The notes beneath the pieces are model-generated. The model made no database searches. It was not told where the DNA came from and was given only the letters and a program-made list of their open reading frames with translations. The translations under genes and the position numbers were made by a program. A stretch of DNA of 64,000 bases from an uncultured Bdellovibrionales bacterium (lineage in GTDB: Bacteria > Patescibacteriota > Minisyncoccia > Moranbacterales > UBA9337), in the NCBI GenBank assembly GCA_964605525.1, contig CAZSCV010000001.1, forward strand, positions 18,424 to 82,423, in the 5' to 3' direction. Each line of letters opens with the position of its first letter. The stretch's first letter is position 1. Below, in pieces: positions 9,395 through 54,679 of this stretch.

Positions 9395-9409
9395 CTTTTA
9401 TGGCATACT

Positions 9410-9850
9410 TCAAACAATTTTTCTTTGCGGGGAAGATATTCCCAATTGCTCCTTAACGGCAAAAACTACCTGACTTGGCTTCGTGTTTGCCTTAATAAGA
9501 TATTTTTTTGCACCTAGCGACAATGCTGCATCTCTGTCTCCATTTTGATCGAGATTGGTCAAAACTATAATCGGAATCTTGCTATATTCGGCATTAGAAT
9601 GTATCTTTTCAAGCAAATCAAATCCATCCATTTTCGGCATAATGATATCCAGAGTTATCAAATCTATAAGATCAAAATTTTCTTTTATTTTTTTCAAAAC
9701 TTCCTTTCCATCAGAACAACGTATCACCTCAAATCCATTCGCAATGAAAGCTTTGGCATACATTTCCGAGAGATCACGATCATCTTCGGCAATTAAAATT
9801 GTATTTCTTTTACCTGCCATATTTTTCACAATCCTATATTGCTTGTCCAA
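9410..9850 (-). CDS. orphan response-regulator receiver domain protein (CheY-like, no output domain)
   Basis: NTILIAEDDRDLSEMYAKAFIANGFEVIRCSDGKEVL...LITLDIIMPKMDGFDLLEKI has the D-D...D...K receiver pattern. No histidine kinase in the window. Start may be M at 9820, avoiding overlap with the upstream giant gene. Confidence 0.7.
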   Translation of the reverse strand: MDKQYRIVKNMAGKRNTILIAEDDRDLSEMYAKAFIANGFEVIRCSDGKEVLKKIKENFDLIDLITLDIIMPKMDGFDLLEKIHSNAEYSKIPIIVLTNLDQNGDRDAALSLGAKKYLIKANTKPSQVVFAVKEQLGISSPQRKIV

Positions 9851-12800: not shown

Positions 12801-15800
12801 AAACTTTTGCCACAGTCGGATTTTCACTCACTGCCCATCTGACAACTGCCTGAGTGTTATATATCTCCGGAATTGTCACGCTACTAATTTGAGCGCCAGA
12901 ACTGGTCAATTCGGTCACGTCATCCGTATCACTATTACCATTAAGATTAGATGATTTGGCGCGAAAATTATATTCAGTGCCGACATCCAATCCGGTGATT
13001 ACTACTTCATGCTCTTCTCCCATTGTCGCCACCGTCACTGATGAACTAGTGCCCTCATTGATAGCGTTAGTGGAATAATATACCTTTGAATCCGAAACTA
13101 CACTACTAGTATTCCAAGTCAATTTCATCCAAGTCGTTCCTTTGTCCGCCACCACCAAGTTTGTGATGCTGGGAGTGGAGGTGATTCCCGAACCTCCTGA
13201 TCCGTCGGGAATAGTGGAATCAATTGAACTGTAGGTTGAAACATTGGCAATATCGTCTTCGCAAGTCAAGCGATAATAATATCGATGATTTTCATCAACG
13301 GCTGTATCCACATAGTAGTTAATCAGATTGTCGATATTTTCATCATAAACTACCTCCGTCCAATCAGAAACCACTCCGGAATCATTAGTCGTACTAACTG
13401 TGCTTCCGCGATACAAATGATACTGAGCAAAGTCATTATTTAAATCGGTATTGACTTCCCAAGAAACAAAAATTCTGTTTTCAATCGGAGTAATATTGTC
13501 ATTGCTGGCATCTTGCGCTTTCACTCCACTCGGAACACCCGGAGAATCAGTGTCATATACAATTGCATCCGAAGATGTAATTGAAATATTTCCATTGGCA
13601 TCACGAAATTGCGCGTAAACAGTTTTACTTCCATCGCCAGCGGTTCCTCCATAAGTTGCATCGAGAATATTCCACTGGGTTTTTGAAACGGCATAGTCTT
13701 CCCAGCTTTTCCAGTCGCTGCCGTTATTTGAAAATCTCATTTGATATCCACTTTGATTATCCTCGGTTGTACTGATAATCAAATCTTCGGTATCGTCATT
13801 GGTTTTGTTCGCGTTTGCCGTTGATGAATCAACCGAGAAAGAATTAACTGTCGGATTTTTCGTGTCAATAGGAAATCCCGCCACATTCGATTCGCCGGTT
13901 CCGACTTGATTGGCGGCATTTCCGTCGTTTGCTGAAATCATTATTCTGGCGGATTCATAATACACATTTGGCAAATCGGTTTTAATTGTCCATGAAACAG
14001 TTTTTCCGCTTCCATTGTCAATTCCCGCGCCGACATCTCCAGTAACAGAAACGCCCTTAAACCAAATAGCTTCTCCGCTAAGATGATTTACTGTACGAGT
14101 ACTGTTGGCACCTCGAGTAATACCAATCAAATCATTGCCAGACTTTCCGGTATATTCGATCTGCTCTTTTTCAATTTGAATCGTTCCGCTACTTGGTAAA
14201 CTTGCCGTATTGGAAACAGTAATTGCCGTCGAATCACTCGCGATAAAATCTTCCTCAAGAGTTGCTCCCAAATCCGCCAAAACAGAAATAGTTTGCGCAG
14301 ATGTGTCTGAATCTGCAACATCATAGGAAACGTTCACGATTCCGGAGGCGTCCTGAGAGGCAATCACCGATCCAACAAGAGGAGCAACATTAACCACATA
14401 TTGCAATTCCGCGCGCGTAACTGTTGCCGATTGACCTCCATTATCAGTTTCTAGAATTATTTTGTATTGCATCCATTGATCATCCGTTCCGTCCCCAATA
14501 TTTATTTCAGCGGGAATAAAACAATCAACTGTTCTGGTTCCCGCATTAACAGTTGACGAACAATTTACCGCATCACTACTTGAAAAATAACTCGATCCCG
14601 TTCCATCCGGTCCAACAAACCCAGTAACAGATCCGGTTTCCGGCGCATCATTTCCAGCATTGGTTGGAGCTGTTTGCGCTTGAAATTTCACGTCAGTCCC
14701 AGATGGAAGATTCTCTTCTTCTTCCCAGATAATATTAGTGAAAGCATTTGTTTCGTCAGAAGCATTATACCAAGAACCCACAAGTGATTGTGTTACGAGT
14801 AATCCGGAAAAATTGCTAATTCTTTCAAATTGAACGGATATATCATTTAATGTCGGGGTTTGGGTTTGATCGGTTGAAGATGTAAGTGTTGCCTGATATT
14901 GAACATATCGCTGCCCATCCGTCACGCAACTGTTTGCAGAAATATCCGCTCCGCTAGAAACCGCTTCGCAACTTGCCCAATCAGTTGCGCCACTCATATC
15001 CAAGTTATCGGAAGTCCTCGCTTTCACGGAAACGGATGAACCGACTGGCGTTGTGTTGGCGTTATATGCCAAATTTCCAAAAGAAATATTTCCTAAGGTG
15101 TCATAAATTGAAGAAGTGTAATTTCCTGTCGTTTGATAATTACTTACATCCACATCGACATTTATTTGGTCCAGCGTCGGGGTTGCGGTTCCCGGACCGG
15201 TAAGTGTCGCCTGGTACCAAAGATACTGGTCGCTTGAACTGGCGCAAGTGGAATTCAAAGCGATAGGAGAAGTGCTTCCATCGCAAGTGTCCGCCGCGAA
15301 ACTCGGCGGAGTGACGGCGCTACTTCCCGATTTGACCTTCACGGTAATATCCCCGCCATTTGATGTTTCGTTCCAAGCGAACGAATTCCACGTCCTGCCA
15401 CCGGTATTTCCGGAAGAAACATACGAAGTATAAGTTCCAGAAAGGTTATAAGAAACATCCGAACATATACAAAGAATCGGCTGAGAAAAAGTACATCCTC
15501 TACTAGACCGCTGTATCCAATCGCTAGTCTGATATCCTATATATCCAGACATACCATTAGATGTCGGGCAATGATAAGTAAGATTATATGACCCACCGTA
15601 ATTTGAATTTGACCACCAATATCCAGAAAAATAATCCAATCCAGTGTTAATATATGACGGAATAGTGCCATCGAGCATATCCGCCCAAGTATTTGTAAAA
15701 AGAGTAGAAGTACCACTAGACTTACTATATTTATAAATAGGACTATTGCTATCAAATCGACCCGTGACTCCATCGGAATCAACATCGATCGTCTGCATAT

Positions 15801-16653
15801 CCTGTATTTCATCGTTTACATCAGTGCTTATAAACCCTTTAACGGATCCGGTATCGCAATTTGGCCTGTTAACACTAGAAGAACACATAGAATCAACGGA
15901 ACTTCGAAGAATATTAGTTCCCAGCATACTGCCTCCTAAATACAAAGTTGATTTTCCGGCAGCAGTTGATAATTTAATACCCGCACCATTACCTACTACT
16001 CCATTTTGCCTCGTATTGGAAAAAGTTCCATACCCCCATCCCCCCTGCTGTCCACTACTGGAAACGGTTGATGTGTCATCGGTTTGCGTGACAGAATAAT
16101 TCGTTACAAATGTATCCAATTGAACAAATCCTTCTGCTCCGCTTCCGCTCATCGCTGTCTGACTAACCGTTCCTGCGTTAAAATCCGTATCCGTCGTCTG
16201 CGTCCAGGATACCGCCTCTGAAGATAAAGTTACTCCATCGCCATCAGCAGTAATATCTTCATCCTTGGAAGCATATTTATCCCAATTGGAAACCGGGGTT
16301 GTTTGATGCGCGACATAATCATTCGGAAAGGCTCCGCCCGTCCAACTGCTCTGCTGCCAATTAAAAGTTGCCGCCTGCGATTTGAACACCGGCAAAATCA
16401 GTTGAATAATTAAAGTAGAAATCACAATAACCGAAATAGCCGAAGACAGGCTTAGTGTCACCCGGCGCACTTTTTTCTGGTATTTTTTTAGTGCAATATA
16501 TGAATCGAAATAAATATCGCACCTCACCTCCCCATCCGGATTCTGATGGCACTGCTGAATGCGAAAGTGGTTATCTTTGGCGCTACGAAAAATCAAATGA
16601 AAATAATCTTTGATTTTTATTTTAATTTTTTCTGTTTTTTGTTTTGAATCCAT
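9826..16653 (-). CDS. giant cell-surface protein with many fibronectin type III-like repeats (2275 aa)
   Basis: Single uninterrupted ORF. N-terminal anchor (VTLSLSSAISVIVISTLIIQLILPVF). Ser/Thr-rich central part. At least 10 FN3-like modules ending in Y-x-[FY]-x-[VI]-x-[AS]-x-D-x-x-G-N (YNFRAKSSNLNGN, YKIQARDINGN, YYYRIKLVDSANN, YYFKIKLQDENGN, YHYQVISKDASAN, YTFYVKSVDSLGN, YYFRIKGEDSSSN, YKLSVKVRDKEGN, YYFNVKAEDKTGN). Confidence 0.7.
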   Translation of the reverse strand: MDSKQKTEKIKIKIKDYFHLIFRSAKDNHFRIQQCHQNPDGEVRCDIYFDSYIALKKYQKKVRRVTLSLSSAISVIVISTLIIQLILPVFKSQAATFNWQQSSWTGGAFPNDYVAHQTTPVSNWDKYASKDEDITADGDGVTLSSEAVSWTQTTDTDFNAGTVSQTAMSGSGAEGFVQLDTFVTNYSVTQTDDTSTVSSSGQQGGWGYGTFSNTRQNGVVGNGAGIKLSTAAGKSTLYLGGSMLGTNILRSSVDSMCSSSVNRPNCDTGSVKGFISTDVNDEIQDMQTIDVDSDGVTGRFDSNSPIYKYSKSSGTSTLFTNTWADMLDGTIPSYINTGLDYFSGYWWSNSNYGGSYNLTYHCPTSNGMSGYIGYQTSDWIQRSSRGCTFSQPILCICSDVSYNLSGTYTSYVSSGNTGGRTWNSFAWNETSNGGDITVKVKSGSSAVTPPSFAADTCDGSTSPIALNSTCASSSDQYLWYQATLTGPGTATPTLDQINVDVDVSNYQTTGNYTSSIYDTLGNISFGNLAYNANTTPVGSSVSVKARTSDNLDMSGATDWASCEAVSSGADISANSCVTDGQRYVQYQATLTSSTDQTQTPTLNDISVQFERISNFSGLLVTQSLVGSWYNASDETNAFTNIIWEEEENLPSGTDVKFQAQTAPTNAGNDAPETGSVTGFVGPDGTGSSYFSSSDAVNCSSTVNAGTRTVDCFIPAEINIGDGTDDQWMQYKIILETDNGGQSATVTRAELQYVVNVAPLVGSVIASQDASGIVNVSYDVADSDTSAQTISVLADLGATLEEDFIASDSTAITVSNTASLPSSGTIQIEKEQIEYTGKSGNDLIGITRGANSTRTVNHLSGEAIWFKGVSVTGDVGAGIDNGSGKTVSWTIKTDLPNVYYESARIMISANDGNAANQVGTGESNVAGFPIDTKNPTVNSFSVDSSTANANKTNDDTEDLIISTTEDNQSGYQMRFSNNGSDWKSWEDYAVSKTQWNILDATYGGTAGDGSKTVYAQFRDANGNISITSSDAIVYDTDSPGVPSGVKAQDASNDNITPIENRIFVSWEVNTDLNNDFAQYHLYRGSTVSTTNDSGVVSDWTEVVYDENIDNLINYYVDTAVDENHRYYYRLTCEDDIANVSTYSSIDSTIPDGSGGSGITSTPSITNLVVADKGTTWMKLTWNTSSVVSDSKVYYSTNAINEGTSSSVTVATMGEEHEVVITGLDVGTEYNFRAKSSNLNGNSDTDDVTELTSSGAQISSVTIPEIYNTQAVVRWAVSENPTVAKVYYTNQTSGDVPDFSSSDNQSAECDGDTLICQADIVGLSVNTKYYFYVEADNDTDKNPERGVIHYFNFRTDNDQAAPTIIPNDAVFGAPIIKTDTKGVIKWITDEKAVSRVLYKKSSDSYNDPSWSQTYTMERAVVLDNLSRNTVYTYKIQARDINGNQSESDEFNFSTLAKQEDHPDLIAPDDPTSANVLITGETEAVIYFSGNTQTTARLCYEANQISDVDTCDNYVDNDTASITHVFYLENLQSNQVYYYRIKLVDSANNDIYFYTADSSMIKFTTESLIDSSAPGLSTYSVSDTSSDNAEISVVSDSDSIVSIYYSDSVEDFSSDDYEEKSSSKSFTTTHSINLKNLSQGRTYYFKIKLQDENGNYNLYDNGGAYYTFETVSGPDISSGPDCTSGNNQLTISWDTNEDADAFVIYSEDDDLADYFKKGEDEKKEEHSVTIGSLLPQVKYYYQVLSENVEGGVSASDIEECSTLGEGVDSQVPDISNVQAVLIGKNQALINWTTNEVSTSKVRYGKTENYSSTTSENTDMITNHNVLLEDLDSGTTYHYQVISKDASANSDESGDYTFKTLGAATEDTDLAGFITGAYTAPDISSASATVSKTLSNSVTVSWKTDKEATSVVVYKPEGGNYKDQGDTTTLTTNHEITINDLTPNTKYTFYVKSVDSLGNTGQSDADTFTTSAASDIFNVEVIDVNYDSATVSWETSANATSQLEYGKSREMDKEITKDSDRSKAHAINLTSLNAGTKYYFRIKGEDSSSNIYSSSEYTFSTPAPPEVQDFKVDSIDEHNIKVSFKTNIEADAFVTLTNVEKEEDQHFQGSPEQKTEHSLEVGNLESGVMYKLSVKVRDKEGNTTEKEIDKYTTNKDENPPVIENLRTTSALSQAGKVQTILSWDTDEPSKTMFIYREGIGGNKREVVASEDYTLKHTAVITTLEQGLAYYFNVKAEDKTGNVSITQDRGVLTPKDKKNIIQVITNNFQNIFSWTSNIGL

Positions 16654-17016: not shown

Positions 17017-18162
17017 CTAATTTTTTACCGGCATCACAATATACACATATCCATCTTCAACTGTTCCATCTTTTTCGCTTATTGATCTGATTCCTACGGG
17101 AGAATGATTATTATTAGCCAAAATAGCCACCTGGGTGGAGTGAATCGTACCCAATCCATCCAAAACATAACGCGGATTCAAAACTATTTCCTGATCCGGA
17201 CCGACAACATCAGCCTCAAAAACAGCCTCATTCTCACCATAACTTTGAGAATGGGAACTGACGGACAATTTTTTTTCACTTATTGCAAGTTTCATTTCAC
17301 CACTGCGATTATCCGTAAAAATACTTGCTATTTTGGTTGCCCGTAAAAAATCATTTTTTGCCATCACCACTCTTGTCTCAAATTTTTGGGGAAGAATTTG
17401 CCTATAATCCGGATATTTTCCGTTAATTAATCGCGAAACCAACTGGATTCCGTCCAATTCAAAAAATATTTGATTGTCTTCTACAAAAATTTTGACATTC
17501 TTATCCTCGTTTCCAATAATCCGCAACAATTCAAACATTGTACCGGATGGAATTATTATGGAAGTTTCTTTTTCAATATAATTATTGTACTCCTCTCCAT
17601 AATTTCCTTCTTTCAAAACTATCGTCGCTTCTGCCAATCTGAAACTATCCGTAGCTGCCAAAGAGATGCGATCCTTTTCCAAAAACATATTAATTCCCGT
17701 AAACTCAAGCCTGGTCTCGCCAAAAGCGATGCAAGATGAAACCTGGGAAACCGCCTCCTTTATTTCTATTGAATTCAAAATTAACAAACAATCACTTTTC
17801 GGCTCAGGAATGATTGGAAATTCATTTGAGTCAAATCCATTTATTTTTACCTGGTATTGACCGCAAGATACAATTAAAATTTGCCCGGAAACCTCAAGAT
17901 TAATACTTTCTTGAGCAGAAAGATTGGAAGCAAAATTGCTTAATATCTTGGCAGGAACAGTAATTTTTCCCTCTCGCTCAATCTTAGCTCCAATGCTTGA
18001 AAATACACCAATTTCAAGATTAGTAGCCAAAAAACGCAACCGCCCTTTGCTAGTTTCAATTAAAATATTATTCAAGATCGGCAAAGTAGCTTGTTTTCCG
18101 GTAACCTTTTCCGTATTAAAAACAGCTTTTTTAAAATTTTCCTGCGTACAAGTAACTTTCAT
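17017..18162 (-). CDS. dnaN: DNA polymerase III beta sliding clamp
   Basis: 381 aa. N-terminus MKVTCTQENFKKAVFNTEKVTGKQATLPILNNILIETSKGRLRFLATNLEIGV is typical DnaN. Located directly after dnaA. Confidence 0.85.
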   Translation of the reverse strand: MKVTCTQENFKKAVFNTEKVTGKQATLPILNNILIETSKGRLRFLATNLEIGVFSSIGAKIEREGKITVPAKILSNFASNLSAQESINLEVSGQILIVSCGQYQVKINGFDSNEFPIIPEPKSDCLLILNSIEIKEAVSQVSSCIAFGETRLEFTGINMFLEKDRISLAATDSFRLAEATIVLKEGNYGEEYNNYIEKETSIIIPSGTMFELLRIIGNEDKNVKIFVEDNQIFFELDGIQLVSRLINGKYPDYRQILPQKFETRVVMAKNDFLRATKIASIFTDNRSGEMKLAISEKKLSVSSHSQSYGENEAVFEADVVGPDQEIVLNPRYVLDGLGTIHSTQVAILANNNHSPVGIRSISEKDGTVEDGYVYIVMPVKN

Positions 18163-18237
18163 TCTGTTCGTAAATCATGAAACGCATTTTTTTCCGGCAA
18201 ACACAACGGGATATTATGCGTGTCAAGATATGTGTAA

Positions 18238-19644
18238 TTAGTTAAAACTGAAAATTTTATTCTTTAAGATTTTTATATCCTCTTCTAATTTTTCATCTTC
18301 TTTTATTTGCCTGCTTATTTTCTTAAATGCATGCAGTGCCGTTGTGTGGTCCCTTCCTCCAAAAATCTCTCCGATGCCAGGATACGACGCATTTAATTCA
18401 GTTCGAATCAAATACATAGCTATTTGCCTGGGAACAGCTACCCTTTTTTTTCTTCCCTTATTTGCAAGTTCTTTTTCTTCGACTCCATAAAATTCTGCAA
18501 TTACTTTAATAATATCAGCATGATTAATTCCTTTCTTTTTTCTGCTGGCGATAATATCAGACAAAACTTCCTTAACGTAAACCATCGAAGGAGTTTTTTT
18601 ATTCAAATCGCAACTGGCTATTACTCTATTTAATGCTCCCTCCAATTCTCGAATATTGTTTTTTATATTTTCTGCAATAAACCTTACTACATCCTCCTCA
18701 AGGAAGAAATTTTTTTCAGCTGATTTTGCCCGTAAAATCGCCATTCTTGTTTCCAAATCCGGACTGCAAACATCCACAATCATCCCTCCCTCAAACCGGC
18801 TTCGCAAGCGATCCTCGAGAACTTGAATTTCCCGGGGAGGTCTGTCGCTACTAATTACAATTTGCTTATTAAGTTGATATAAAAAATTGAAAATATGGAA
18901 AAAAATATCCTGCGTTTTTTCTTTTCCAGAAATAAATTGAATATCATCGATTATCAACAAGCTTATTTTTTGATATTTCTCCTTAAATTGGTCAATTTTT
19001 TGATTTTTAATCGAATCTACCAATTCCGTAGTAAATCTTTCCGAAGAAATATAAATAATATTTTTTTCTGGATTTTTTTGAATAACCTCATTGCCGATTG
19101 CTTGCAAAAGATGGGTTTTCCCTAGTCCGACACCTCCATAAATAAATAATGGATTATACGTATTTCCCAGTTCTTGAGAAACAGCATAACATGCCGCCCT
19201 GGCTAATTCATTATTTTCTCCGACAATGAAATTTTCAAAGGTATATCTGGGATTTATTTGATAAAAAGCTTGCTTTTGCTGGGCTACTCTATATGTATTT
19301 TCTGCGTTATTCAAATCTACTGTATTATTCGTTCGAATGCCGGAAGATTTTTTTATCATATCAATACTCTTTCCGGACATATTTTTTTCTTGCGGATTAT
19401 AAATCATACAGCTGAGCTCCCTGACATCCTCCTGAAAATTACGAATAGCCTTAACTATATTGGCATTAAATTTGTTTTCCAACCATTCCTTGGCAAATCC
19501 ATTCGGCACGCCAACAACAACCTTACCGCTTTCATTAGAAAGAATGACGGTATCCTTAAACCAAGTAATAAATTGCGCTCTTGAAATAGAAAGCTCTATT
19601 TCTCCCAATACAGCCTGCCAAAGTTCTTCGTTGCTCATTGCCAT
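18238..19644 (-). CDS. dnaA: chromosomal replication initiator DnaA
   Basis: Walker A GGVGLGKTHLLQAIGNEV, AAA+ core, and C-terminal DNA-binding domain IAEFYGVEEKELANKGRKKRVAVPRQIAMYLIRTELNASYPGIGEIFGGRDHTTALHAFKKI. Confidence 0.95.
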   Translation of the reverse strand: MAMSNEELWQAVLGEIELSISRAQFITWFKDTVILSNESGKVVVGVPNGFAKEWLENKFNANIVKAIRNFQEDVRELSCMIYNPQEKNMSGKSIDMIKKSSGIRTNNTVDLNNAENTYRVAQQKQAFYQINPRYTFENFIVGENNELARAACYAVSQELGNTYNPLFIYGGVGLGKTHLLQAIGNEVIQKNPEKNIIYISSERFTTELVDSIKNQKIDQFKEKYQKISLLIIDDIQFISGKEKTQDIFFHIFNFLYQLNKQIVISSDRPPREIQVLEDRLRSRFEGGMIVDVCSPDLETRMAILRAKSAEKNFFLEEDVVRFIAENIKNNIRELEGALNRVIASCDLNKKTPSMVYVKEVLSDIIASRKKKGINHADIIKVIAEFYGVEEKELANKGRKKRVAVPRQIAMYLIRTELNASYPGIGEIFGGRDHTTALHAFKKISRQIKEDEKLEEDIKILKNKIFSFN

Positions 19645-23348: not shown

Positions 23349-23388
23349 AAAAAAGTCCGAGAGAGTTTTCTCTCGGACTTTTATTTTT
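23349..23388. terminator. bidirectional rho-independent terminator between convergent genes
   Basis: AAAAA GTCCGAGAGAG ttt CTCTCGGAC TTTTATTTTT. Perfect 11-bp stem flanked by A- and T-runs. Confidence 0.6.
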
Positions 23389-23391
23389 CAA

Positions 23392-24519
23392 TTACCACAA
23401 CCCAGCTCGCTTCCGATAGGCCTCAATCTCCGCAAGAGTTCTTTCAATGCCGCCAAAGAGTTCAGGAAAAAGAAATTCATACTGCCCGGCATGAAGCTGG
23501 AGAAAATCAGAAATAACTGGGAGCGGCAAATTCTCCAAAGAACGAAATAAAAAATTTGCCAATCCCCTTTTACTTTTCGAAAGATCTTTCCATTCCACAT
23601 CAGTAAAAACCCTGTGCAATATTCGCAAAGCCTCGCTCTTTCTATTGCTCATTGTGCCAACTCTTTTTAGCAGTTTTAAAAGAGAAATATACAAAATATC
23701 ATCCGCTTCTTCTATAGCCGCTATTAATCGTTCTAATCCAACGACACTAATAAACAAAGAGCGATCCCATTCCCTGAGATTAACTACGTAACTTTCTTTG
23801 TTTTGAATTGTGATTATTGGTATCATATTCAATCTTTCGATTGTTCCAATATCCAGCCACTGACCATTTGGCAATAAATACAAAAATTCATTACGATATC
23901 CCCAAGGAACAACAATATTGTACCAGTTAGATGTGAGATAATTATCCCTCGTATCAACCCCTTCGAGCTGATTTTCCATAAGTCCACATTTCGAAAAGGT
24001 ATCGCGCAAACAATCTTCGTCTATATAGGCATCGACGAGAACTTTCCTCTCCTGTTTTTCTTTTTTTCGACTCATTTCGATGTTGCTAGCCGTATTTCCG
24101 GAAAAATAAGTGACCTTGATTCTTGATTGATCTAAGCCGATTGCGATAAAAAAATCCAGCATAGTCCTTACAATCCCTTCATAACAAGTCCTTGCGCTAT
24201 CAACACCAATGACCTTTCCGCCCGCAATTGTCGCAAGAGTAAAAAGTCCCAAGTGCTGTCCGTTGCCATTAACATCACGGCAATAAAAATTCTCAAAATC
24301 TCGCATCCTAATCGCCGGCTGAATTTTTTGGAAATTATCGCCAATTGCAATATCGACAAAATTTCCGTATTTTTCAAACCATTGCATTTCATCTAAGCAA
24401 TAACAGAACTGCCCTGGATATAATGGCGATGAAATAGGTGTGTTTTTCAAAATTGAAATACCACTATTCTTATGAATAATCTTGATTTTCTCCATTACTA
24501 TTTTAGCGGTTTTCTCCAT
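23392..24519 (-). CDS. stand-alone class II aminoacyl-tRNA-synthetase-like catalytic core (AlaRS-like signatures); function unknown
   Basis: 375 aa. Class II motif-2-like WGYRNEFLYLLPNGQWLDIGTIERL. Motif-3-like FISVVGLERLIAAIEE. FEKYGNF...GDNFQK resembles the AlaRS FEMLGNFSFGDYFK block. No anticodon-binding, editing or C-Ala domains. Confidence 0.4.
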   Translation of the reverse strand: MEKTAKIVMEKIKIIHKNSGISILKNTPISSPLYPGQFCYCLDEMQWFEKYGNFVDIAIGDNFQKIQPAIRMRDFENFYCRDVNGNGQHLGLFTLATIAGGKVIGVDSARTCYEGIVRTMLDFFIAIGLDQSRIKVTYFSGNTASNIEMSRKKEKQERKVLVDAYIDEDCLRDTFSKCGLMENQLEGVDTRDNYLTSNWYNIVVPWGYRNEFLYLLPNGQWLDIGTIERLNMIPIITIQNKESYVVNLREWDRSLFISVVGLERLIAAIEEADDILYISLLKLLKRVGTMSNRKSEALRILHRVFTDVEWKDLSKSKRGLANFLFRSLENLPLPVISDFLQLHAGQYEFLFPELFGGIERTLAEIEAYRKRAGLW

Positions 24520-24715
24520 TGAGATTCTCCTGTTAATTTATGGGTTTCAAGTTTAACTATTATGTTTTCAAAGATCAACAAGCAAGCATATCATTTCCAA
24601 TAGAATAAACAATAAAATTGCCCGTTTTTATTATTTTGTTGACTTTTTGCTTAATATAAAGTATAATTAAGCTATAAAAAAACGGCGGTTTTGCCGTCAT
24701 TAATAAAAATATCTT

Positions 24716-25453
24716 ATGAGTATCCTTAATAAACTTCAAAAACTCAGCCTAAGCGAAATCCAGTCCAAAGCGTATATTGCCCTTTTACAGATTGGCGAGG
24801 GCAGCGCTTTGCAAGTTTCCCGCAATGCAAACCTCCCAAAATCAACGGTTTTTGAAACGCTTAAATCCCTTAACGGATTAAATCTAATTTCTAAGAGGTC
24901 ACAAGGGAACAAAAATATTTTCTTTGTTTCAGATCCACGCATTATCTTGGATAACATAAAAGAACAAGCACGAACAGCTGAAGACATCCTTCCGGAACTT
25001 CGCGGACTATACAAAGCTTTTAACAAAAATGCGCAAGTACGTTTTTTTGAAGGACCAAAAGCTATTGAAATAATTATAAACGAAACATTGATGGAAGCAA
25101 AAGAATTAAAATTAATAGGATCTATTTCTGATACAGTTGAATTCTACCCTAAATACTTTCCCCGATTCTCAATACAACGCGTTAAACGCAAAATACCTCT
25201 TCGTATACTCACAAACGACTCAGAGACAGCACAAGAAAATATTCTTCTAGATAAAAGAAAATTGCGCACAACCAAAATAATCCAAAATAAAGAATTTTCC
25301 TCAATGATTTGGATGTGGTCTGGTAAAATCGGCATAATTGCCACGCGAGGAAAACAATTTGCGATGGTTATCGATGAACCCGGAATATTCGGCATTCAAA
25401 CCGCAATGTTTGATTTAATTTGGGATTCGCTTCCGGAAAGTAAACAATATTGA
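24716..25453 (+). CDS. TrmB-like winged-helix transcriptional regulator, paralog 2 of 7
   Basis: SEIQSKAYIALLQIGEGSALQVSRNANLPKSTVFETLKSLNGLNLISK wHTH. Conserved C-terminal block ...FAMVIDEPGIFGIQTAMFDLIWDSLPE. Promoter TTGACT-N17-TATAAT at about 24628-24656. Small GC hairpin ACGGCGgttttGCCGT in the leader. Confidence 0.7.
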   Translation: MSILNKLQKLSLSEIQSKAYIALLQIGEGSALQVSRNANLPKSTVFETLKSLNGLNLISKRSQGNKNIFFVSDPRIILDNIKEQARTAEDILPELRGLYKAFNKNAQVRFFEGPKAIEIIINETLMEAKELKLIGSISDTVEFYPKYFPRFSIQRVKRKIPLRILTNDSETAQENILLDKRKLRTTKIIQNKEFSSMIWMWSGKIGIIATRGKQFAMVIDEPGIFGIQTAMFDLIWDSLPESKQY

Positions 25454-25479
25454 TTTAATATTTTCCAATTCTTCCAAAA

Positions 25480-26250
25480 TTACTTTTGCGACAGTGTCCA
25501 AAGTTTTTTGAACATTTCACGCATATTGAAAGCTAGCGCATGATCATGCAGTTCTACTAGATAAAATGGGTGCTGCCGCGTGTTTATCATTATTAAATAA
25601 TCCCCAGCTACCCATACGCTTGAAGTGAAATTGAGATCATCCGCAAAACGCACATCCCTTTTATGCTTGAAATTTTTTTTAGCTTGCTTTTTCTCTATTT
25701 CTGACACATTGGTAAAAATTTGCCCGCGAAGATTCTTAGCATACGGCGTCTCCCATGAAGCATTTATCCATTTTTCGTAATTTTCCACGAAGCTATGATC
25801 CTGAAATCCCCACCAAACTCCATCAGACCCGACAACTGCCTTTGACCACTTGATCAAATTATCAAAAAGAAATTTTTCCAATCCATCCTCTTCAATAAAA
25901 ACAATTTTAGGAACAGGATATAGTTTTTCCGCGGTAATCAGATTCAGCTCCCCGACAGCCTTTTTTATCAAAACCTCTTTGTCTTTGATTTCCCGACGCA
26001 TCTGATCCAAGATTTTTTCTAAATTTTTAGGCGGCAAAGGGACATAATACAACGATTTGGAACTTATATCTTCAGCTATGATGCCCTTTGACAACAAATT
26101 TCCCGCAACGCTATACAAAGTCGCCCTGTTTAATTTCGTAATTTTCGCCAAAACAGCAGGCTTTACCTTGCCGCTTTTCAATAAGGCTAGGTAAACTTTG
26201 ATTTCTTTGTCATTCAAGCCTAGATTTTTCAAAATTTGATGGATACTCAT
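25480..26250 (-). CDS. TrmB-like winged-helix transcriptional regulator, paralog 3 of 7
   Basis: DKEIKVYLALLKSGKVKPAVLAKITKLNRATLYSVAGNLLSKGII wHTH. Conserved C-terminal block. Promoter TTGACA-N17-TATAAT ends 6 nt before ATG (near-leaderless). Surrounded by a 30-bp near-palindrome centred on CAATTG. Confidence 0.7.
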   Translation of the reverse strand: MSIHQILKNLGLNDKEIKVYLALLKSGKVKPAVLAKITKLNRATLYSVAGNLLSKGIIAEDISSKSLYYVPLPPKNLEKILDQMRREIKDKEVLIKKAVGELNLITAEKLYPVPKIVFIEEDGLEKFLFDNLIKWSKAVVGSDGVWWGFQDHSFVENYEKWINASWETPYAKNLRGQIFTNVSEIEKKQAKKNFKHKRDVRFADDLNFTSSVWVAGDYLIMINTRQHPFYLVELHDHALAFNMREMFKKLWTLSQK

Positions 26251-26417
26251 ATGTCCATTATACTCTGTTGTTGAAATATTGTCAACAATTGTTCGACAAA
26301 TATTGACAATATTTTTATTTTGGACTATATTGCCCTATTGTGATGGAATTGTCCACCATAATACCTATTCTTTAAAAATCAAATAATTCGAAACAATCAT
26401 TAAATCAGGAGGAAATT

Positions 26418-26840
26418 ATGACTTGGCAAATTTACCTATTTCTAACAATTTTGTTCTGGGGCGGATACAATATTTCCTATAGGTTCACAACAAATAAAAT
26501 AGATTTTGCGCTTTTATTATTCATAGTTGGAATAGTACATGCATTAACAGCTATCCCTTGGGCAGTGTCTGGTTACATGAAAAAAGGATTCATACTTCAT
26601 TCCGATAGCGGCATTAGTATAGCCATTCTCATGGGAGTTTTTATGACTTTAGGTGGAATAGCTTTTACTCGCGCCTTTAGTTTGGGAATCCCAGTTTCTG
26701 TGGCTACGCCAGGATACAGCGTCGGAGTTATACTTCTGAGCGCCATTACTGGGATTGTTTTAGGTGAATCACTTACACTGCAATGGGTTGTAGGAATGAT
26801 TATGGGCATAGTGTCGGTTTATCTTTTAACAATAAAATAG
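26418..26840 (+). CDS. EamA-like small DMT-family membrane protein (4 TM)
   Basis: CAGGAGG RBS. 140 aa, four hydrophobic helices, MTWQIYLFLTILFWGGYNISYRF is an EamA-like N-terminus. Confidence 0.5.
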   Translation: MTWQIYLFLTILFWGGYNISYRFTTNKIDFALLLFIVGIVHALTAIPWAVSGYMKKGFILHSDSGISIAILMGVFMTLGGIAFTRAFSLGIPVSVATPGYSVGVILLSAITGIVLGESLTLQWVVGMIMGIVSVYLLTIK

Positions 26841-26851
26841 GGGGGAAAGTT

Positions 26852-27421
26852 ATGAAAAAAATTATTTTATTGGCAATCTTGTACATTAGTCTTACGACAA
26901 ATATTGTCATGGCAACTACTCCGATTTCAGGAGATGTAGAAGTGCGCGAAATCGTCACTAGCAATAAATCTTCCCAGCAATTGAATTTCTATGGATCTAG
27001 CTTGGTTGATGGGAACATCCTTGGCATCTCCGGAGTTGCCAGCGTCAGCAAGGATTATTCCGAAGCATACATCGGACCGATTTGGATGCCCGCACCATGG
27101 ATTTCCCTCGAAGCCGGCGTCGGACTTCAACAGATTGAAAATGGATCACCATTGAGATATGCCTTGGCAGGCTGGATCGGAAATTCGATCGGATCCCTCT
27201 ACTACATCCGGGAAATGGGCGCCGACAGTGATGACTGGTGGGAAAAGTTGCGGATATTTGCCAATCTCGGAGAATTTGCCAAAATTGGCGTTGTTTACGA
27301 GAAGGGATATGATTGGGGACCGATAATCGAAATTCCAATCCCATCATCCCGATTCAAAATTCGGGCAACCTGGCACCCCGAACCAAATATCGCACACTTC
27401 AGTTTGTTTTTTAACTTCTAA
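26852..27421 (+). CDS. secreted protein with signal peptide and aromatic C-terminus (possible beta-barrel)
   Basis: GGGGGGAAAG RBS. MKKIILLAILYISLTTNIVMA signal peptide. Alternating hydrophobic pattern. C-terminus ...HFSLFFNF ends in Phe, an OMP-like signature. Terminator-like hairpin AAGCGG...CCGCTTTTT at about 27452-27480. Confidence 0.5.
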   Translation: MKKIILLAILYISLTTNIVMATTPISGDVEVREIVTSNKSSQQLNFYGSSLVDGNILGISGVASVSKDYSEAYIGPIWMPAPWISLEAGVGLQQIENGSPLRYALAGWIGNSIGSLYYIREMGADSDDWWEKLRIFANLGEFAKIGVVYEKGYDWGPIIEIPIPSSRFKIRATWHPEPNIAHFSLFFNF

Positions 27422-27571
27422 TTTAGGAGATTTTATATCCAGATCTAACGAAAGCGGCACCAAATGGCACCGCTTTTTATATTTATCAAGTAATAAAAAA
27501 ACAGGAGGCCAGCGCTATGCGCAAAGCCTCCTATGCAACTTGTCTTCACGAAATCAAGGAATTATCTCCTT

Positions 27572-27760
27572 TTATAAGGGGCCGCTATAGAACCCCTTAT
27601 CACGATAATCCCTATCATTATCTCGGGAAAGCTCTTTGATAATTCTATCGATTGCTCCTTTTTCTTCTCCTGTAAAACCTTTCATTTCCTCAAGTTCTTC
27701 TCCACGTTCAATTGATGAATGATCACACATTTGTCTACCACAAATTTTACAACATTTCAT
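27572..27760 (-). CDS. small Cys-rich acidic protein (62 aa)
   Basis: GGGAGG RBS immediately upstream of ATG. MKCCKICGRQMCDHSSIERGEELEEMKGFTGEEKG... has 5 Cys and 1 His in the first 14 residues. Own terminator (AGGAGGC...GCCTCCT plus T-run on minus strand, about 27505-27535). Lies 72 nt downstream of TrmB paralog 4. Confidence 0.4.
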   Translation of the reverse strand: MKCCKICGRQMCDHSSIERGEELEEMKGFTGEEKGAIDRIIKELSRDNDRDYRDKGFYSGPL

Positions 27761-27832
27761 CTTTCTACCTCCCTTGTTAAATTAAAATCTATTACCACCC
27801 TCACACACCTCTTAAATAGATTTCTGACTTCC

Positions 27833-28612
27833 CTACTTTTCCAACATCTTCCACATCATCTCAAAATATTGCCGGTGGGTTTCGGCGAAGTCCCTACTTT
27901 CTATTACGACGATAATGTTTTCCTCCTTGGTTGAGAACATTGCAATCTTGTTTCCGAAAATTATTTCCGTCGAAGGAAATTGGAACTCTTTCGGAGCAAG
28001 GCGCGTTTCTCGGTTGTGCTTCAAATCTATTTTTTGAAGCTTTTGCGCCGACTGCGAATCTTCATTGATAGCTCGGCTGGAAAAACCCAGACGAACTTTC
28101 TTTTTTTGGATCTCTTCCAAAAAACTTTCACCCGCAAATTCAATGAATGTTTCAATACGAGCCAAACTCAAAAAGTTTTTGTCCTTGGAAGAAAAAATAT
28201 CATTCCAAACTTTTTTGAACCCTTTTTCTCCCTCATAAACCCTAATCTGGGGTTTAAAGGAATCGCCTAGATAGATGGCATTGATCGTCGGTAGGATGTC
28301 CTCCACGATTTTTTTGGATTTTTGCAATTCATGATGTTTTTCATCTAGAAGCGCATACAGCTTGCCAGTCGGATTTTCAGAAATCAACCTCCTTTTCTTA
28401 CCTTTCTTTATTTCCGTGACAAATCCTTTAATTTTCAACTTTTCAACAATATCATAAACCGTCCCGCGGCTTAATTCAGTGCCTTCAGAAATTGAAGGAA
28501 TAGAAGCTTCGCTATTTTCCATAACTGACAGATATATCAAAGATTCCTTATCAGTTAATCCTAATTGTAAAAGACCGCTCAGAACCTCCTTTTTTTGAAT
28601 TTTGCTTAACAT
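27833..28612 (-). CDS. TrmB-like winged-helix transcriptional regulator, paralog 4 of 7
   Basis: LTDKESLIYLSVMENSEASIPSISEGTELSRGTVYDIVEKLKIKGFV wHTH. Conserved C-terminal block ...IIVVIESRDFAETHRQYFEMMWKMLEK. Promoter TTGATA-N17-TATATT ends 2 nt before ATG (leaderless). Confidence 0.7.
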   Translation of the reverse strand: MLSKIQKKEVLSGLLQLGLTDKESLIYLSVMENSEASIPSISEGTELSRGTVYDIVEKLKIKGFVTEIKKGKKRRLISENPTGKLYALLDEKHHELQKSKKIVEDILPTINAIYLGDSFKPQIRVYEGEKGFKKVWNDIFSSKDKNFLSLARIETFIEFAGESFLEEIQKKKVRLGFSSRAINEDSQSAQKLQKIDLKHNRETRLAPKEFQFPSTEIIFGNKIAMFSTKEENIIVVIESRDFAETHRQYFEMMWKMLEK

Positions 28613-28813: not shown

Positions 28814-29998
28814 TTATTTCACCTTTTCCAATTCATTGATTTTATCCAAATCAAAAATATCCCTGATTAATATTTTATTTTTTGCCTTAATATTATTGAA
28901 TAAATCCTCCTGTTTCCGGGGCATTTCTGAATTATATTTCACTTCAATCAAGGTTTTATTTTCCGTTAAAAAATCAATTTCATTGCCATCTTGGTATACA
29001 TATCGCGGATTAAGCTTCTTTATTTTCAGATAAACATAATTTTCAAGCAAACTGCCTTTATCGCGAAAGCCCGTAAAATATACGCGCATGCCTAAGTCGG
29101 CAGCATAAATCTTTTTGGCCGACAACAAGCGCTCATTGGTTTTGCCGAAACGCGGCACCAAAAAAATCAAATAAGAATCAGCAAACATCTGCAGATATCG
29201 CTTGGCTGAATCCGGTGAAATATCCAAAATTTTAGCAATCTTATTGATACTGCAAACCTTGCCCGCCCTTTCCATTAGCAACAGAAAAAAATCCTTGAGA
29301 ATTTGCACATCTTTTACGCCATAAAAAGCGGCGATGTCTTTTTGGATTATGTCATCCACCAATTCTTTCAAATACTCGATGTTGCCGGTCAAAACATATT
29401 CCGGCATTCCACCGACCTGCATAAAATCTTCGAAATAACTTTTCAGCAAATGTTTATCAGTTTTTTTAATCACAACTTTTTTAAATTGCAAATATTCTTC
29501 AAAATCCAACGGCAAAACTTCAACTATCATATTGCGCCCTGTCAAAAATGCTTTCCTGCTTTTCAGGAGTGAAGCACTGGATGATGAAGCATAAACTTTG
29601 GCATTTTGCTGGTCATAGATGTTTTTAAGTTGCAACTCAAAATCTTTTTGATACGTCACCTCATCCAAAAACAAAAATATTTTTTCAGAAAAATTCAATC
29701 TATGGATTTTTCTATACTCCTCGATAATCTCCAAAATACTCTTGCCTGTCAAAAGATAATCATCCAGGCTGACATAGAAAATCAATTTTGGATCAACTTT
29801 CCTTTGATCTATAAGATGTCGGATAATCTGCTTCATTAAAGTAGTCTTGCCCACGCGCCGCAAACCAGTCAAAATAGTCACCTGCCTACTTGCCAGATTA
29901 TCCTTCAAAACTTCCAAAATGCGCGGTCTTTCAATGATGTTTTCCGCCTTAAATTCAGTTTCCCACCAAGGATTATAGCGATATAATATTTGTTCCAT
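28814..29998 (-). CDS. AAA+ ATPase (AAA_14 + DUF4143-type, family recalled), copy 1
   Basis: Walker A TGLRRVGKTTLMKQ. Walker B IFLFLDEV. C-terminal KYN...D[FL] block resembles the DUF4143 family. Start set at ATG 29998 (MEQILYRYNPWW) because the ORF-track start at 30055 is a TTG codon lying inside the promoter. Confidence 0.65.
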   Translation of the reverse strand: MEQILYRYNPWWETEFKAENIIERPRILEVLKDNLASRQVTILTGLRRVGKTTLMKQIIRHLIDQRKVDPKLIFYVSLDDYLLTGKSILEIIEEYRKIHRLNFSEKIFLFLDEVTYQKDFELQLKNIYDQQNAKVYASSSSASLLKSRKAFLTGRNMIVEVLPLDFEEYLQFKKVVIKKTDKHLLKSYFEDFMQVGGMPEYVLTGNIEYLKELVDDIIQKDIAAFYGVKDVQILKDFFLLLMERAGKVCSINKIAKILDISPDSAKRYLQMFADSYLIFLVPRFGKTNERLLSAKKIYAADLGMRVYFTGFRDKGSLLENYVYLKIKKLNPRYVYQDGNEIDFLTENKTLIEVKYNSEMPRKQEDLFNNIKAKNKILIRDIFDLDKINELEKVK

Positions 29999-30027
29999 AA
30001 AACTATTTTTACTATTTACAAATACAT

Positions 30028-30079
30028 TATACGATACTATCGTATAATTTGTCAAATATCTATACGATAGTATCGTATA
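30028..30079 (-). promoter_or_regulatory. promoter with twin 19-bp palindromic operators (TATACGATA-c/g-TATCGTATA) upstream of AAA-ATPase 1
   Basis: Sense strand: TATACGATACTATCGTATA-gatat-TTGACA-aat-TATACGATAGTATCGTATAAT. One palindrome abuts the -35. The other fills the 18-nt spacer and supplies the TATAAT -10. Palindromes at 30028-30046 and 30061-30079. Confidence 0.5.
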
Positions 30080-37609: not shown

Positions 37610-37650
37610 ATTTTTAAAATTTCTTTAAATAGTTTATTTTAAATATTTAT

Positions 37651-38322
37651 CTATATTTTTGTTATTTTAAGGAAGATTATATCCAATAAAATAATGGCTA
37701 TCCAACCAAAAATAAATGAATACCAAATTGCACGGCTTTTATAGGCAATCCATCCGCCCAATAAGTTTATCACCATATAAGGGAAAAAATTCCAATTCAA
37801 ATTATCTATTAAAGCCAGTAAAATTGTAAAAATTGCAAATTGCAAAAAAACTGCACCTTTTTTAAAATATTTTTCAAAAAAATTCAAAATCCAGCCATGA
37901 AAAAAGAACTCGTACAAAAATAAAAAAAATCCAACCAGAAAAACCTCGTAAATCACAAATAATCCAAAATTATTGCTTACTGATTGTGGAATTCGATACT
38001 CATTGGAAAAATTTGAATATTTATACGCCACCAACATAATTAAAGAAAACACAAACAAAAAAATAACTATCAAATAAATTCCAGTATTCATTCTTCCTGA
38101 TTGGATTCCATATTCTTTCATTGATTCGCCTAACACTATTTTAATATATAGCCACGGAACAATCAAAAAAAATGAAAATCCGACAATAAAATCTTGCAAG
38201 GCATTATTTCTGGGAAAAATCCCAACCAAAATCAAACAAATTATTGCAACAGCGGAAGTTATCCAAATTTCTTTTTTTATTAACATTTTTTTATTAAATA
38301 CTAACTTAAAATTATTTCTCAC
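37651..38322 (-). CDS. polytopic membrane protein (possible CPBP/Abi-like)
   Basis: 223 aa, 6 TM. YEFFFHGWILNFF weakly resembles the EExxxR/FxxxH motifs of CAAX-protease-like proteins. Low certainty. Confidence 0.35.
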   Translation of the reverse strand: MRNNFKLVFNKKMLIKKEIWITSAVAIICLILVGIFPRNNALQDFIVGFSFFLIVPWLYIKIVLGESMKEYGIQSGRMNTGIYLIVIFLFVFSLIMLVAYKYSNFSNEYRIPQSVSNNFGLFVIYEVFLVGFFLFLYEFFFHGWILNFFEKYFKKGAVFLQFAIFTILLALIDNLNWNFFPYMVINLLGGWIAYKSRAIWYSFIFGWIAIILLDIIFLKITKI

Positions 38323-38614: not shown

Positions 38615-38666
38615 ATTTTTTTCTTGCCCGTCTTAATGCCTGCCATTTTTTCAAAATTAAACCGCT

Positions 38667-54570: not shown

Positions 54571-54679
54571 CTACGCAAAATTTATTATTAACAATAAATT
54601 TTTGTGTAGTGGCCACGTTTGTGGTTTTTTGTTTATTTAAAACTGCGATTGTGATATTGTAGTAGTGTATAAACTTATT

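Follow-up and report, generated by a model that had tools for sequence, protein, structure and literature searches.

The gene at positions 23392 to 24519 of the window (the whole 64-kb stretch of DNA that was analysed) encodes a 375 amino acid protein, a free-standing paralog of the aminoacylation domain of alanyl-tRNA synthetase (AlaRS) that has strongly diverged. Judging from sequence comparison, this protein is probably an accessory adenylate-forming enzyme with a substrate pocket that is not of the AlaRS type, functionally coupled to a TrmBL2-type regulator, and not a housekeeping or split AlaRS. An accessory role is suggested because the family is rare (an exhaustive search of 1.84 billion representatives yields 90 clusters at 50% identity, and a pattern-based scan of 185,579 species genomes gives 36 loci as a lower bound) and because some genomes hold tandem paralogs. 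A paralog with a non-canonical function had been put forward in the first-pass annotation of this DNA, and it is supported here as the most likely reading. Unexpected chemistry has been found time and again in stand-alone paralogs of synthetase cores, such as HisZ, AsnA, PoxA, the amino acid:carrier-protein ligases and AcmF.

Members of the family occur only in CPR bacteria and DPANN archaea and, based on a rough tree, the family appears to have moved between bacteria and archaea. In one locus (L002), tandem paralogs from different subfamilies lie side by side. A scan of IMG/VR viral contigs with A1 found no relatives, and the target has no match in PADLOC (anti-phage defence) or PHROGs (phage families). 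In the literature we found neither a description of this family nor any described AlaRS-derived family in which the adenylation site is kept and the alanine-recognition residues are replaced. Such a stand-alone family, with the adenylation site apparently kept and alanine recognition replaced, is found in CPR and DPANN organisms, for which little is understood of metabolism and regulation. The homologs are hypothetical proteins in NCBI records and three are labelled ‘alanyl-tRNA synthetase’ by JGI; such automated labels call for caution in scoring the aaRS sets of reduced genomes.

The gene, its terminator and the two parts of its product are as follows:

23392 to 24519, minus strand: coding sequence of the 375-aa AlaRS-derived protein, stop codon included, ATG start (list of open reading frames)

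23351 to 23382, no strand assigned: bidirectional intrinsic terminator with a 14-bp stem, common to the convergent flippase gene (terminator scan)

23710 to 24519, minus strand: class II (AlaRS-type) catalytic core, residues 1-270 (Foldseek; hhalign of the family profile against E. coli AlaRS)

23395 to 23709, minus strand: helical domain, residues 271-375, which corresponds by homology to the first half of the tRNA-recognition domain in AlaRS (profile alignment)

The reading frame is the one first annotated, with the same strand, ATG start and length of 375 amino acids. The terminator begins 10 nt past the stop codon, and the gene would be a monocistronic unit. The protein is 100% identical to P0001, which sits on a 238-kb contig, and its AF2 model has a pLDDT of 94.7 and a pTM of 0.92. 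Recognition of AlaRS features by eye went further than routine annotation, because the target alone has no match in Pfam or NCBIfam (E up to 10) or in PDB sequence searches.

Comparison of the AF2 model with the PDB in Foldseek gives AlaRS catalytic fragments for all of the best 27 matches (E down to 7.6e-14, TMq 0.68-0.70), at ~13% identity between the protein and AlaRS, and ThrRS is the next family at 6e-6. A family profile of 84 members (A2; mean column identity 28%) was compared with PDB sequences and with E. coli AlaRS. Against the PDB it finds AlaRS of bacterial, archaeal and eukaryotic origin (E 6e-13 to 1e-9), followed by PylRS at 0.018; in hhalign against E. coli AlaRS (97.4%, E 1.6e-11), target residues 4-328 lie opposite AlaRS residues 4-317. 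Pfam PF01411 is matched directly by 20 of the 84 members, the best at 8.3e-13. The protein thus has the catalytic-domain fold, the profile similarity over the core and the ATP-site residues of the AlaRS superfamily (class II, subclass IId), a membership by remote, transitive homology only, with the target itself below the PF01411 threshold. The structure and profile searches both place AlaRS on top and bear out the earlier suggestion of a stand-alone class II core of the AlaRS type. One protein from the representative search, P0122 (1065 aa), was discarded as an unrelated repeat protein.

The other member of subclass IId, the bacterial GlyRS alpha subunit GlyQ, likewise consists of a small catalytic core (~300 aa) that stands alone and has a relationship to AlaRS (PMC4938167). 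GlyQ is absent from the PDB profile matches (E up to 1) and from the Foldseek top 50, and its Pfam family PF02091 is touched by one of the 84 members, at E 0.023. A GlyRS alpha identity was rejected, as it has no structure or profile match better than AlaRS; in a further difference, both the IId Trp and the acidic residue that binds the amino group are retained by GlyQ (PMC4938167).

The motifs of the catalytic core were located by alignment to AlaRS:

24331 to 24378, minus strand: block FEKYGNF..GDNF, residues 48-63, motif-1-proximal, opposite E. coli NAGMNQFKDVFLGLDKRNY in hhalign and upstream of motif 2

24205 to 24336, minus strand: motif 2 region, residues 62-105, with QPAIR71, invariant D74 and invariant F93 (alignment to AlaRS; column counts)

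23875 to 23907, minus strand: strand PWGYRNEFLYL, residues 205-215, with invariant G207, R209 and E211, opposite AlaRS GPCGPC(T/S)EI(F/H)Y

23803 to 23859, minus strand: strand WLDIGTIERL..., residues 221-239 (deep-profile alignment to human AlaRS LEIWNLVF)

23710 to 23796, minus strand: motif 3 strand and helix, residues 242-270, with ...FISVVGLERLIAAIE and invariant G261 and R264 (gap-free alignment to SVDTGMGLERI)

The strings picked out in the first-pass annotation are all found, namely FEKYGNF (residues 48-54), GDNF (60-63), YRNE (208-211) and GLERL (261-265), and they are not chance matches: G207, R209, E211, G261 and R264 are invariant in the 84 members at a mean column identity of 28%. 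The identification of GLERL as motif 3 holds, given its gap-free alignment, and two other assignments have to be moved. YRNE, which was taken for motif 2, lies opposite the AlaRS strand GPCGPC(T/S)EI, located after an insertion, and motif 2 is instead QPAIR71...F93, where R71 is opposite the AlaRS motif-2 Arg (QRCVR) and F93 is opposite the second Phe of TFFEM. FEKYGNF...GDNF, which was compared to the AlaRS FEMLGNF signature, is aligned by hhalign with the motif-1 region NAGMNQFKD; the true counterpart of AlaRS FEMLGNFSFG is HLGLFTLATIAG, residues 89-100. Each of the ATP-site residues R71, F93, E211, G261 and R264 is found in 84 of 84 members in the family alignment, and the D223 position is Asp or Glu in all 84. 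D74 (84/84) and R209 are new invariant residues.

From the alignment, the alanine-recognition residues are lost while the ATP site is conserved. D223, T226 and E228 stand at the positions of AlaRS Glu209, Asn212 and Val214, and the Asn212 position has become Thr in 83 and the Val214 position Glu in 81 of the 84 members. In AlaRS the alpha-amino group is bound by Asp235 (PMC12143591); this position is I257 in the target, and its column is mostly Ile, Val or Leu, with Asp or Glu in 0/84. A pocket Trp together with an acidic residue is a hallmark of substrate binding in subclass IId, and the Trp is absolutely conserved in AlaRS (PMC4938167). The Trp170 position is W199 in the target and Trp in 35/84 members. 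One subfamily could keep an AlaRS-like Trp and Asp site by a one-residue indel, because the column one residue past Asp235 is Asp or Glu in 24/84 members, 22 of which also carry Trp199. In this column the close orthologs have Asp, Asn or Ser, and the target has Ser. Overall, the substrate pocket has probably been rebuilt into a more charged one (E228, T226, D74, E44, R209), with E228, D74, E44 and R209 placed relative to the substrate by alignment alone.

The domains for tRNA recognition and editing and the C-Ala domain had all been reported as missing. The editing domain and C-Ala are indeed absent, the helical domain being the last part of the 375 amino acids, and the tRNA-recognition domain is partly there, residues ~271-375 corresponding to its first half. 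Profile positions 236-375 align with residues 216-356 of a bacterial AlaRS (9jdn), with LHRVFTD opposite ..LVAD, S..RK.K...R opposite SNEGRGYVLRRIVRR and NA...FPEL opposite MG.AYPEL; the S..RK motif is aligned to the AlaRS acceptor-stem loop. Residue 356 of 9jdn corresponds to about E. coli residue 366, because its Asp225 is E. coli Asp235 (PMC12143591). The protein ends at this point and the half of the recognition domain with Asp400 is absent. The Asn/Asp pair that reads G3:U70 is N303 and D400 in E. coli (PMC10036535), and the target has Ser in the Asn303 column.

An artificial truncation of E. coli AlaRS, 368N, has a similar extent. It contains the catalytic core and the first part of the recognition domain and keeps the class II ATP residues, as does the present family, whose alignment ends at about E. 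coli 366. It was shown that 368N activates alanine at wild-type efficiency and does not charge tRNA, and that the released adenylate acylates an amine (PMC12930378). The two differ in that 368N has the native alanine pocket, whereas the present family is natural and has the Asp235, Asn212 and Val214 positions replaced.

On the other side of the start codon lie the following parts:

24520 to 24715, no strand assigned: divergent intergenic region (promoter scan; predicted elements)

24716 to 25453, plus strand: TrmBL2-type regulator, 245 aa, divergently transcribed, with a winged helix, a long helix and a PLD-like C-domain (Pfam PF01978, E 2.6e-11)

25480 to 26250, minus strand: second TrmB-like paralog, 256 aa (Pfam PF01978, E 1.9e-12)

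27833 to 28612, minus strand: third TrmB-like paralog, 259 aa (Pfam PF01978)

The product of the divergent gene (AF2 pLDDT 81) matches TrmBL2 over its full length in Foldseek (E 7.9e-14), then TrmB (E 1.5e-10) and then PLD-fold domains, and together with PF01978 this places it in the TrmB/TrmBL2 family. It shares with TrmBL2 and TrmB the winged helix, long helix and PLD-like C-domain, but at ~16% identity and in a CPR bacterium rather than in Thermococcales.

Clustering of four genes on either side at 37 loci gives TrmB-like proteins as the only conserved neighbour family; no carrier protein, biosynthetic cluster or other pathway partner is conserved nearby in this set. An amino acid:carrier-protein ligase was rejected on these grounds, with no adjacent carrier protein and no conserved pathway partner except the TrmB-like one. 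Small open reading frames beside the homologs in two loci (L001 and L002) have no meaningful Pfam match. A divergent TrmB-like gene lies directly upstream of 10/38 family genes and of 12/462 others (OR 13, p 6.5e-7). Within 760 bp a TrmB-like gene is present in 14/37 loci, ~60% of loci being without a TrmB-like neighbour, and one also adjoins the closest orthologs of the target. In five members the enzyme is itself fused to a TrmB-like C-domain, and the fusion partner is the C-domain of the regulator and not its DNA-binding domain. For family member P0019, the fused domain is matched best by the C-domain (residues 121-259) of the third TrmB-like paralog in the window (BLASTP of P0019 382-521: 30% identity, E 3e-11). 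The link to a TrmBL2-type protein provides a concrete, testable pairing.

A mechanism that fits these data would begin with ATP bound via the class II residues (motif-2 R71 and F93, acidic E211 and D223, motif-3 G261 and R264). A carboxylate substrate would then be adenylated in the rebuilt charged pocket (E228, T226, D74, E44, R209), where alanine recognition of the AlaRS type is gone, and the activated acyl group would pass to an acceptor that is not the canonical G3:U70 tRNA-Ala, with an amine on a small molecule or protein favoured over an RNA 3' end. The PLD-like C-domain of the regulator probably senses the substrate or product of the enzyme or touches the enzyme directly. The catalytic activity, the kind of substrate and acceptor, and the regulatory logic are inferred.

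An RNA acceptor is possible given the retained basic helix and the S..RK motif at the acceptor-stem loop position, and it leads to a rather unlikely alternative, an RNA-acylating enzyme of new specificity that would adenylate a non-alanine substrate and load it onto the 3' end of an RNA, either a tRNA or a small acceptor-stem-like one, via the retained half domain. The helical domain is homologous to the acceptor-stem-binding region of AlaRS, a homology that takes in the loop and helix opposite SNEGRGYVLRRIVRR, and region 312-330 has a mean net charge of +4.5 across the family and at least +3 in 88% of members, but the basic helix of the target reaches only +2. The viral mini-AlaRS of Tupanvirus (TuAlaRS) has neither C-Ala nor the canonical Asn/Asp pair and still charges tRNA and microhelices (PMC10036535); yet TuAlaRS is a true AlaRS that charges tRNA-Ala, has its aminoacylation domain complete and stands near the host enzyme in phylogeny, whereas the present family is shorter, lacks the alanine-recognition residues and includes a target too diverged for PF01411. 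Moreover, the recognition domain lacks its second half with Asp400, 46/84 members have Ser and just 15/84 have Asn at the Asn303 position, and 368N, of similar extent, does not charge tRNA (PMC12930378). There is no conserved RNA gene in the vicinity, and Rfam gives only two tRNAs, far from the target gene. It is highly improbable that the protein is the working AlaRS of the organism, either in minimal form or, as had also been suggested, as one half (the catalytic one) of a split enzyme. This would agree with its fold and ancestry, with the three JGI labels, with a genome-encoded tRNA-Ala that has G3:U70 and with the lack of alaS in the 64-kb window (a part of the genome, in which large open reading frames were checked). 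However, the Asp that binds the alpha-amino group is missing in 84/84, the Trp is poorly conserved, and the Asp400 half is missing. For an essential gene the family is also much too rare and its distribution too patchy, with tandem paralogs in some genomes, and an AlaRS C-terminal half is encoded at 0/37 loci. Over these 37 loci (~520 kb) there is no AlaRS-related open reading frame besides the family members and no canonical alaS.

The closest described architecture is that of AcmF from the ascamycin pathway of Streptomyces, which is AlaRS-derived and stand-alone, without editing and C-Ala domains, with altered Asn and Asp active-site residues and a non-translational role (PMC12945691); the same positions are altered here. 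It is nevertheless improbable that the present enzyme is an aminoacyl-tRNA-dependent transferase of this kind, in which a pre-charged tRNA donates its aminoacyl group to a small molecule in the former ATP site. AcmF lost most ATP-binding residues (PMC12945691), which are invariant in the present family; it has the whole tRNA-recognition domain where the present family has half, and it lies in a biosynthetic cluster, whereas the only conserved neighbour here is TrmB-like. Like HisZ in its relation to HisG, the protein could serve as a non-catalytic regulatory subunit or ligand sensor, which would bind ATP and/or a metabolite and modulate the TrmBL2-type protein via the shared C-domain. The Rosetta-stone fusions and the conserved divergent pairing speak for this reading, as does the annotation of E. 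coli AlaRS itself as a DNA-binding repressor, but we regard it as quite improbable: the full catalytic set (motif-2 and motif-3 arginines, acidic metal/ribose ligands) is strictly invariant, which is more typical of an active enzyme, and 60% of the loci have no TrmB-like partner.

For the favoured adenylate-forming enzyme, a more specific version is that it forms, with the TrmBL2-type protein, a two-part sensing and regulatory module shared horizontally between the ultrasmall CPR bacteria and DPANN archaea. In it, the enzyme would turn a metabolite into an acyl-adenylate or an acylated product that is bound by the PLD-like C-domain or covalently transferred to it, and the DNA binding of the regulator would thereby be switched. 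We see this version, drawn by analogy, as unlikely. In the biotin protein ligase/repressor BirA, a class II-like adenylating domain is joined to a winged-helix module and the adenylate is the regulatory ligand. The present family resembles BirA in that an adenylating core stands beside a winged-helix regulator or is joined to a part of one, but the homology is limited to the class II-like fold and the fusions involve the C-domain of the regulator instead of the DNA-binding domain. If such a module exists, an ancient synthetase core would have been repurposed as a signal-generating enzyme, and five members would have captured the C-domain directly.

Several predicted elements in the divergent intergenic region may have promoter or operator roles:

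24527 to 24531, target strand: AGGAG

24585 to 24593, target strand: predicted extended -10-like element TGATATGCT (promoter scan)

24604 to 24616, target strand: conserved block TTTATTGTTTATT (orthologous intergenic regions)

24639 to 24667, plus strand: putative TrmB promoter, TTGACT-17-TATAAT (promoter scan)

24682 to 24698, no strand assigned: conserved hairpin GACGGC...GCCGT

A palindrome over the TrmB -10 box is not taken for an operator, because the orthologous regions show no clear conservation of it. The three orthologous intergenic regions have a mean column identity of 74%.

The open reading frame at 23392-24519 (minus strand, 375 aa) is present in the ORF list of the window exactly as the first-pass annotation had placed it, and the four strings read in the protein are all found there (FEKYGNF at 48-54, GDNF at 60-63, YRNE at 208-211 and GLERL at 261-265). 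Alone, the protein has no match in Pfam, NCBIfam or the PDB sequences, even at E = 10, and under routine annotation it would be "hypothetical". HMM and structure searches lead to the AlaRS catalytic core that had been proposed from sequence. Catalytic fragments of AlaRS fill the first 27 places among the PDB matches of the AF2 model (pLDDT 94.7, pTM 0.92), with E down to 7.6e-14 and TMq ~0.7; ThrRS and AsnA come behind them at only ~1e-5. AlaRS is the only match of a 37-member family profile (E 2e-6), and with an 84-member profile AlaRS from all three domains of life is matched (E 6e-13 to 1e-9), the next match being PylRS (0.018, motif 3 only). Using hhalign against E. coli AlaRS 1-461, target residues 4-328 align to AlaRS 4-317 with 97.4% probability. 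Pfam PF01411 is matched directly by 20 of the 84 members (best 8.3e-13), and the GlyRS-alpha model weakly by only one of them (0.023). Judged from these profiles and the predicted structure, the target is AlaRS-derived.

The alignment to AlaRS bears out GLERL as motif 3 and reassigns the other strings. YRNE, formerly taken as motif 2, aligns to AlaRS GPCGPC(T/S)EI, a later strand, and motif 2 of the target is QPAIR71...F93, aligned to AlaRS QRCVR...TFFEM. The FEKYGNF..GDNF block, likened to the AlaRS signature, lies before motif 2 and aligns to NAGMNQFKD in the motif-1 region; the actual equivalent of AlaRS FEMLGNFSFG is HLGLFTLATIAG. The protein was also described as having no tRNA-recognition domain, yet its residues ~271-375 align to the first half of that domain in AlaRS, with LHRVFTD opposite ..LVAD, S..RK.K...R opposite SNEGRGYVLRRIVRR and NA...FPEL opposite MG.AYPEL. 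The profile alignment to the 9jdn AlaRS stops at its residue 356 and, since Asp225 of that protein is E. coli Asp235 (PMC12143591), this end corresponds to about E. coli residue 366. The missing half contains Asp400, one of two AlaRS residues reading G3:U70 (PMC10036535), and most of the 84 members have Ser at the Asn303 column. This extent is nearly identical to that of the E. coli AlaRS fragment 368N, which activates alanine at wildtype efficiency but does not charge tRNA, and which releases Ala-AMP that then acylates an amine without enzymatic help (PMC12930378). Whereas 368N is engineered, the target would in our view be a natural, re-specified analogue, its substrate not recognised in the AlaRS way.

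Residue conservation was counted over 84 members (28% mean column identity). R71, D74, F93, G207, R209, E211, G261 and R264 are strictly invariant, T226 and E263 occur in 83 members, F38 in 82, E44 and E228 in 81, and the D223 column is Asp or Glu in all. Since the nucleotide-site residues are invariant or highly conserved at this mean identity, the class II nucleotide site (motif-2 Arg and Phe, acidic ligands, motif-3 Gly and Arg) is, by the alignment, under strong constraint. The alanine-recognition residues of AlaRS are not conserved. The column of Asp235, which binds the alpha-amino group (PMC12143591), is Asp or Glu in 0/84; the pocket residues Asn212 and Val214 are Thr and Glu in the family; and Trp170, "absolutely conserved" in AlaRS (PMC4938167), is Trp in 35/84. 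One reservation is that 24 of the 84 carry an acidic residue (Asp or Glu) one position past the Asp235 column, in most cases along with the Trp; this position is, however, D, N or S among the target's close orthologs and Ser in the target. Going by the alignment, the newly invariant D74 and R209 and the nearly invariant E44 and E228 suggest that the pocket has been rebuilt and carries more charge.

A word-indexed search gave 41 homologs, nearly all of 370-400 aa, from CPR bacteria and DPANN archaea; none of the 41 has a Pfam domain, and three carry the JGI label "alanyl-tRNA synthetase". When 1.84 billion cluster representatives were searched exhaustively with HMMER, only 90 family clusters reached E <= 1e-3. 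Among 185,579 species genomes, a search by pattern, which sets a lower bound, found at least 36 loci, in bacteria (Moranii-, Vogel-, Peri-, Sacchari- and Paceibacterota, Berkelbacteria) and archaea (Woese-, Pace- and Nanoarchaeota, Iainarchaeum). No copies were found on viral contigs. The interleaving of bacterial and archaeal members on a rough NJ tree suggests inter-domain transfer. One Nanoarchaeota genome (locus L002) has two translationally coupled paralogs of different tree subfamilies, which could form a heteromer or act on distinct substrates:
8535-9668 and 9665-10858: family paralogs, 4-bp overlap

The target gene is monocistronic, and its surroundings are:
After the stop codon: bidirectional terminator, 14-bp stem
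Upstream: divergent intergenic region, 196 bp, conserved among orthologous loci, with an 11/12 sigma-70 match as candidate promoter of the TrmB gene
24716-25453, plus strand: divergent TrmB-family protein, its structure model matching TrmBL2 at full length (E 7.9e-14)

The modelled C-domain of this neighbour also matches PLD-fold domains, and the protein is 100% identical to one named for Candidatus Berkelbacteria bacterium Athens1014_28, which places the window in a CPR genome. When all neighbours in 37 loci were clustered, TrmB-like proteins were the sole conserved family, with a divergent gene 42-755 bp upstream in 14 loci. Strict divergent adjacency was found for 10 of 38 family genes vs 12 of 462 other genes (OR 13, p 6.5e-7). 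The pairing is seen in both closest orthologs of the target and in all major clades, bacterial and archaeal. The TrmB-like C-domain is moreover fused at the C-terminus of five members (P0019, P0021, P0078, P0092 and a 543-aa protein of locus L041), giving proteins of ~520-545 aa; P0019 382-521 is 30% identical to residues 121-259 of a TrmB paralog of the window (E 3e-11). The L041 example is:
9902-11533: AlaRS-derived core with TrmBL2-type PLD-like C-domain

Two other homologs, P0069 (464 aa) and P0038 (446 aa), have unrelated C-terminal extensions. Beside the target, a stretch of less than 4 kb (24716-28612) contains three TrmB-like paralogs of 245, 256 and 259 aa; their mutual identity is only 19-23%, and they so represent a local expansion of TrmBL2-type regulators. 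A GACGGC-loop-GCCGT hairpin with a T-run (24682-24698) lies within the TrmB gene's 5' leader and is terminator-like when read on the opposite strand; its stem is invariant, without covariation, in three orthologous intergenic regions.

The most economical reading of the target is an accessory adenylate-forming enzyme. It is very probably not the housekeeping AlaRS, and we predict with good confidence that it binds ATP and adenylates. Somewhat less firmly, we favour the full reading of an AlaRS-derived enzyme with non-AlaRS substrate recognition, without the canonical tRNA-Ala charging apparatus and functionally coupled to a TrmBL2-type regulator. The substrate adenylated would be one not recognised in the AlaRS manner, and the coupling might be regulatory, go through a ligand common to both proteins or consist in their direct contact.

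Among four rival explanations, we rank highest an RNA-acylating enzyme with a new specificity, which is possible and agrees with the basic helix retained in the family. An AcmF-like aminoacyl-tRNA-dependent transferase is placed second, and the intact ATP site of the target counts against it (PMC12945691); a non-catalytic sensor subunit follows. A minimal or split AlaRS, the latter already raised in the first-pass annotation, is placed last. An ORF and Pfam survey found no alaS among the large ORFs of the 64-kb window, which encodes a normal tRNA for alanine:
54498-54571: tRNA-Ala(GGC) with G3:U70 and A73, CCA end not gene-encoded

Literature searches found no published description of the family. 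Its nearest described counterparts are AcmF, the Tupanvirus mini-AlaRS, GlyRS-alpha and, as an engineered protein, fragment 368N. Stand-alone synthetase-core paralogs, to which the family belongs, are an already known class; the family itself is apparently undescribed.

Elsewhere in the window, the following were seen:
7400-9394, minus strand: 664-aa protein, Lamin-tail and PKD domains
9826-16653, minus strand: 2275-aa ORF adjoining the 664-aa protein
28814-30055, minus strand: AAA_14/DUF4143-type ATPase, 413 aa, matching PDC-S01, a candidate defence family of PADLOC (E 2.7e-71)
38667-40466, minus strand: TraG/VirB4-like P-loop ATPase, near a 939-aa ORF

The first two are probably large surface proteins, of a kind common in CPR genomes. 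A homolog of the AAA_14 ATPase directly adjoins the target's ortholog in another genome (locus L043). The 939-aa ORF has no Pfam match, and the minus-strand region 34790-40466 that holds it may be a type IV secretion or conjugation-like module. GC skew changes sign, with a cumulative minimum, at about 44-46 kb; most large ORFs before this point run on the minus strand and most of those after it on the plus strand. Because this switch is ~25 kb from the dnaA-dnaN pair (17017-19644), the replication origin may not lie beside dnaA.
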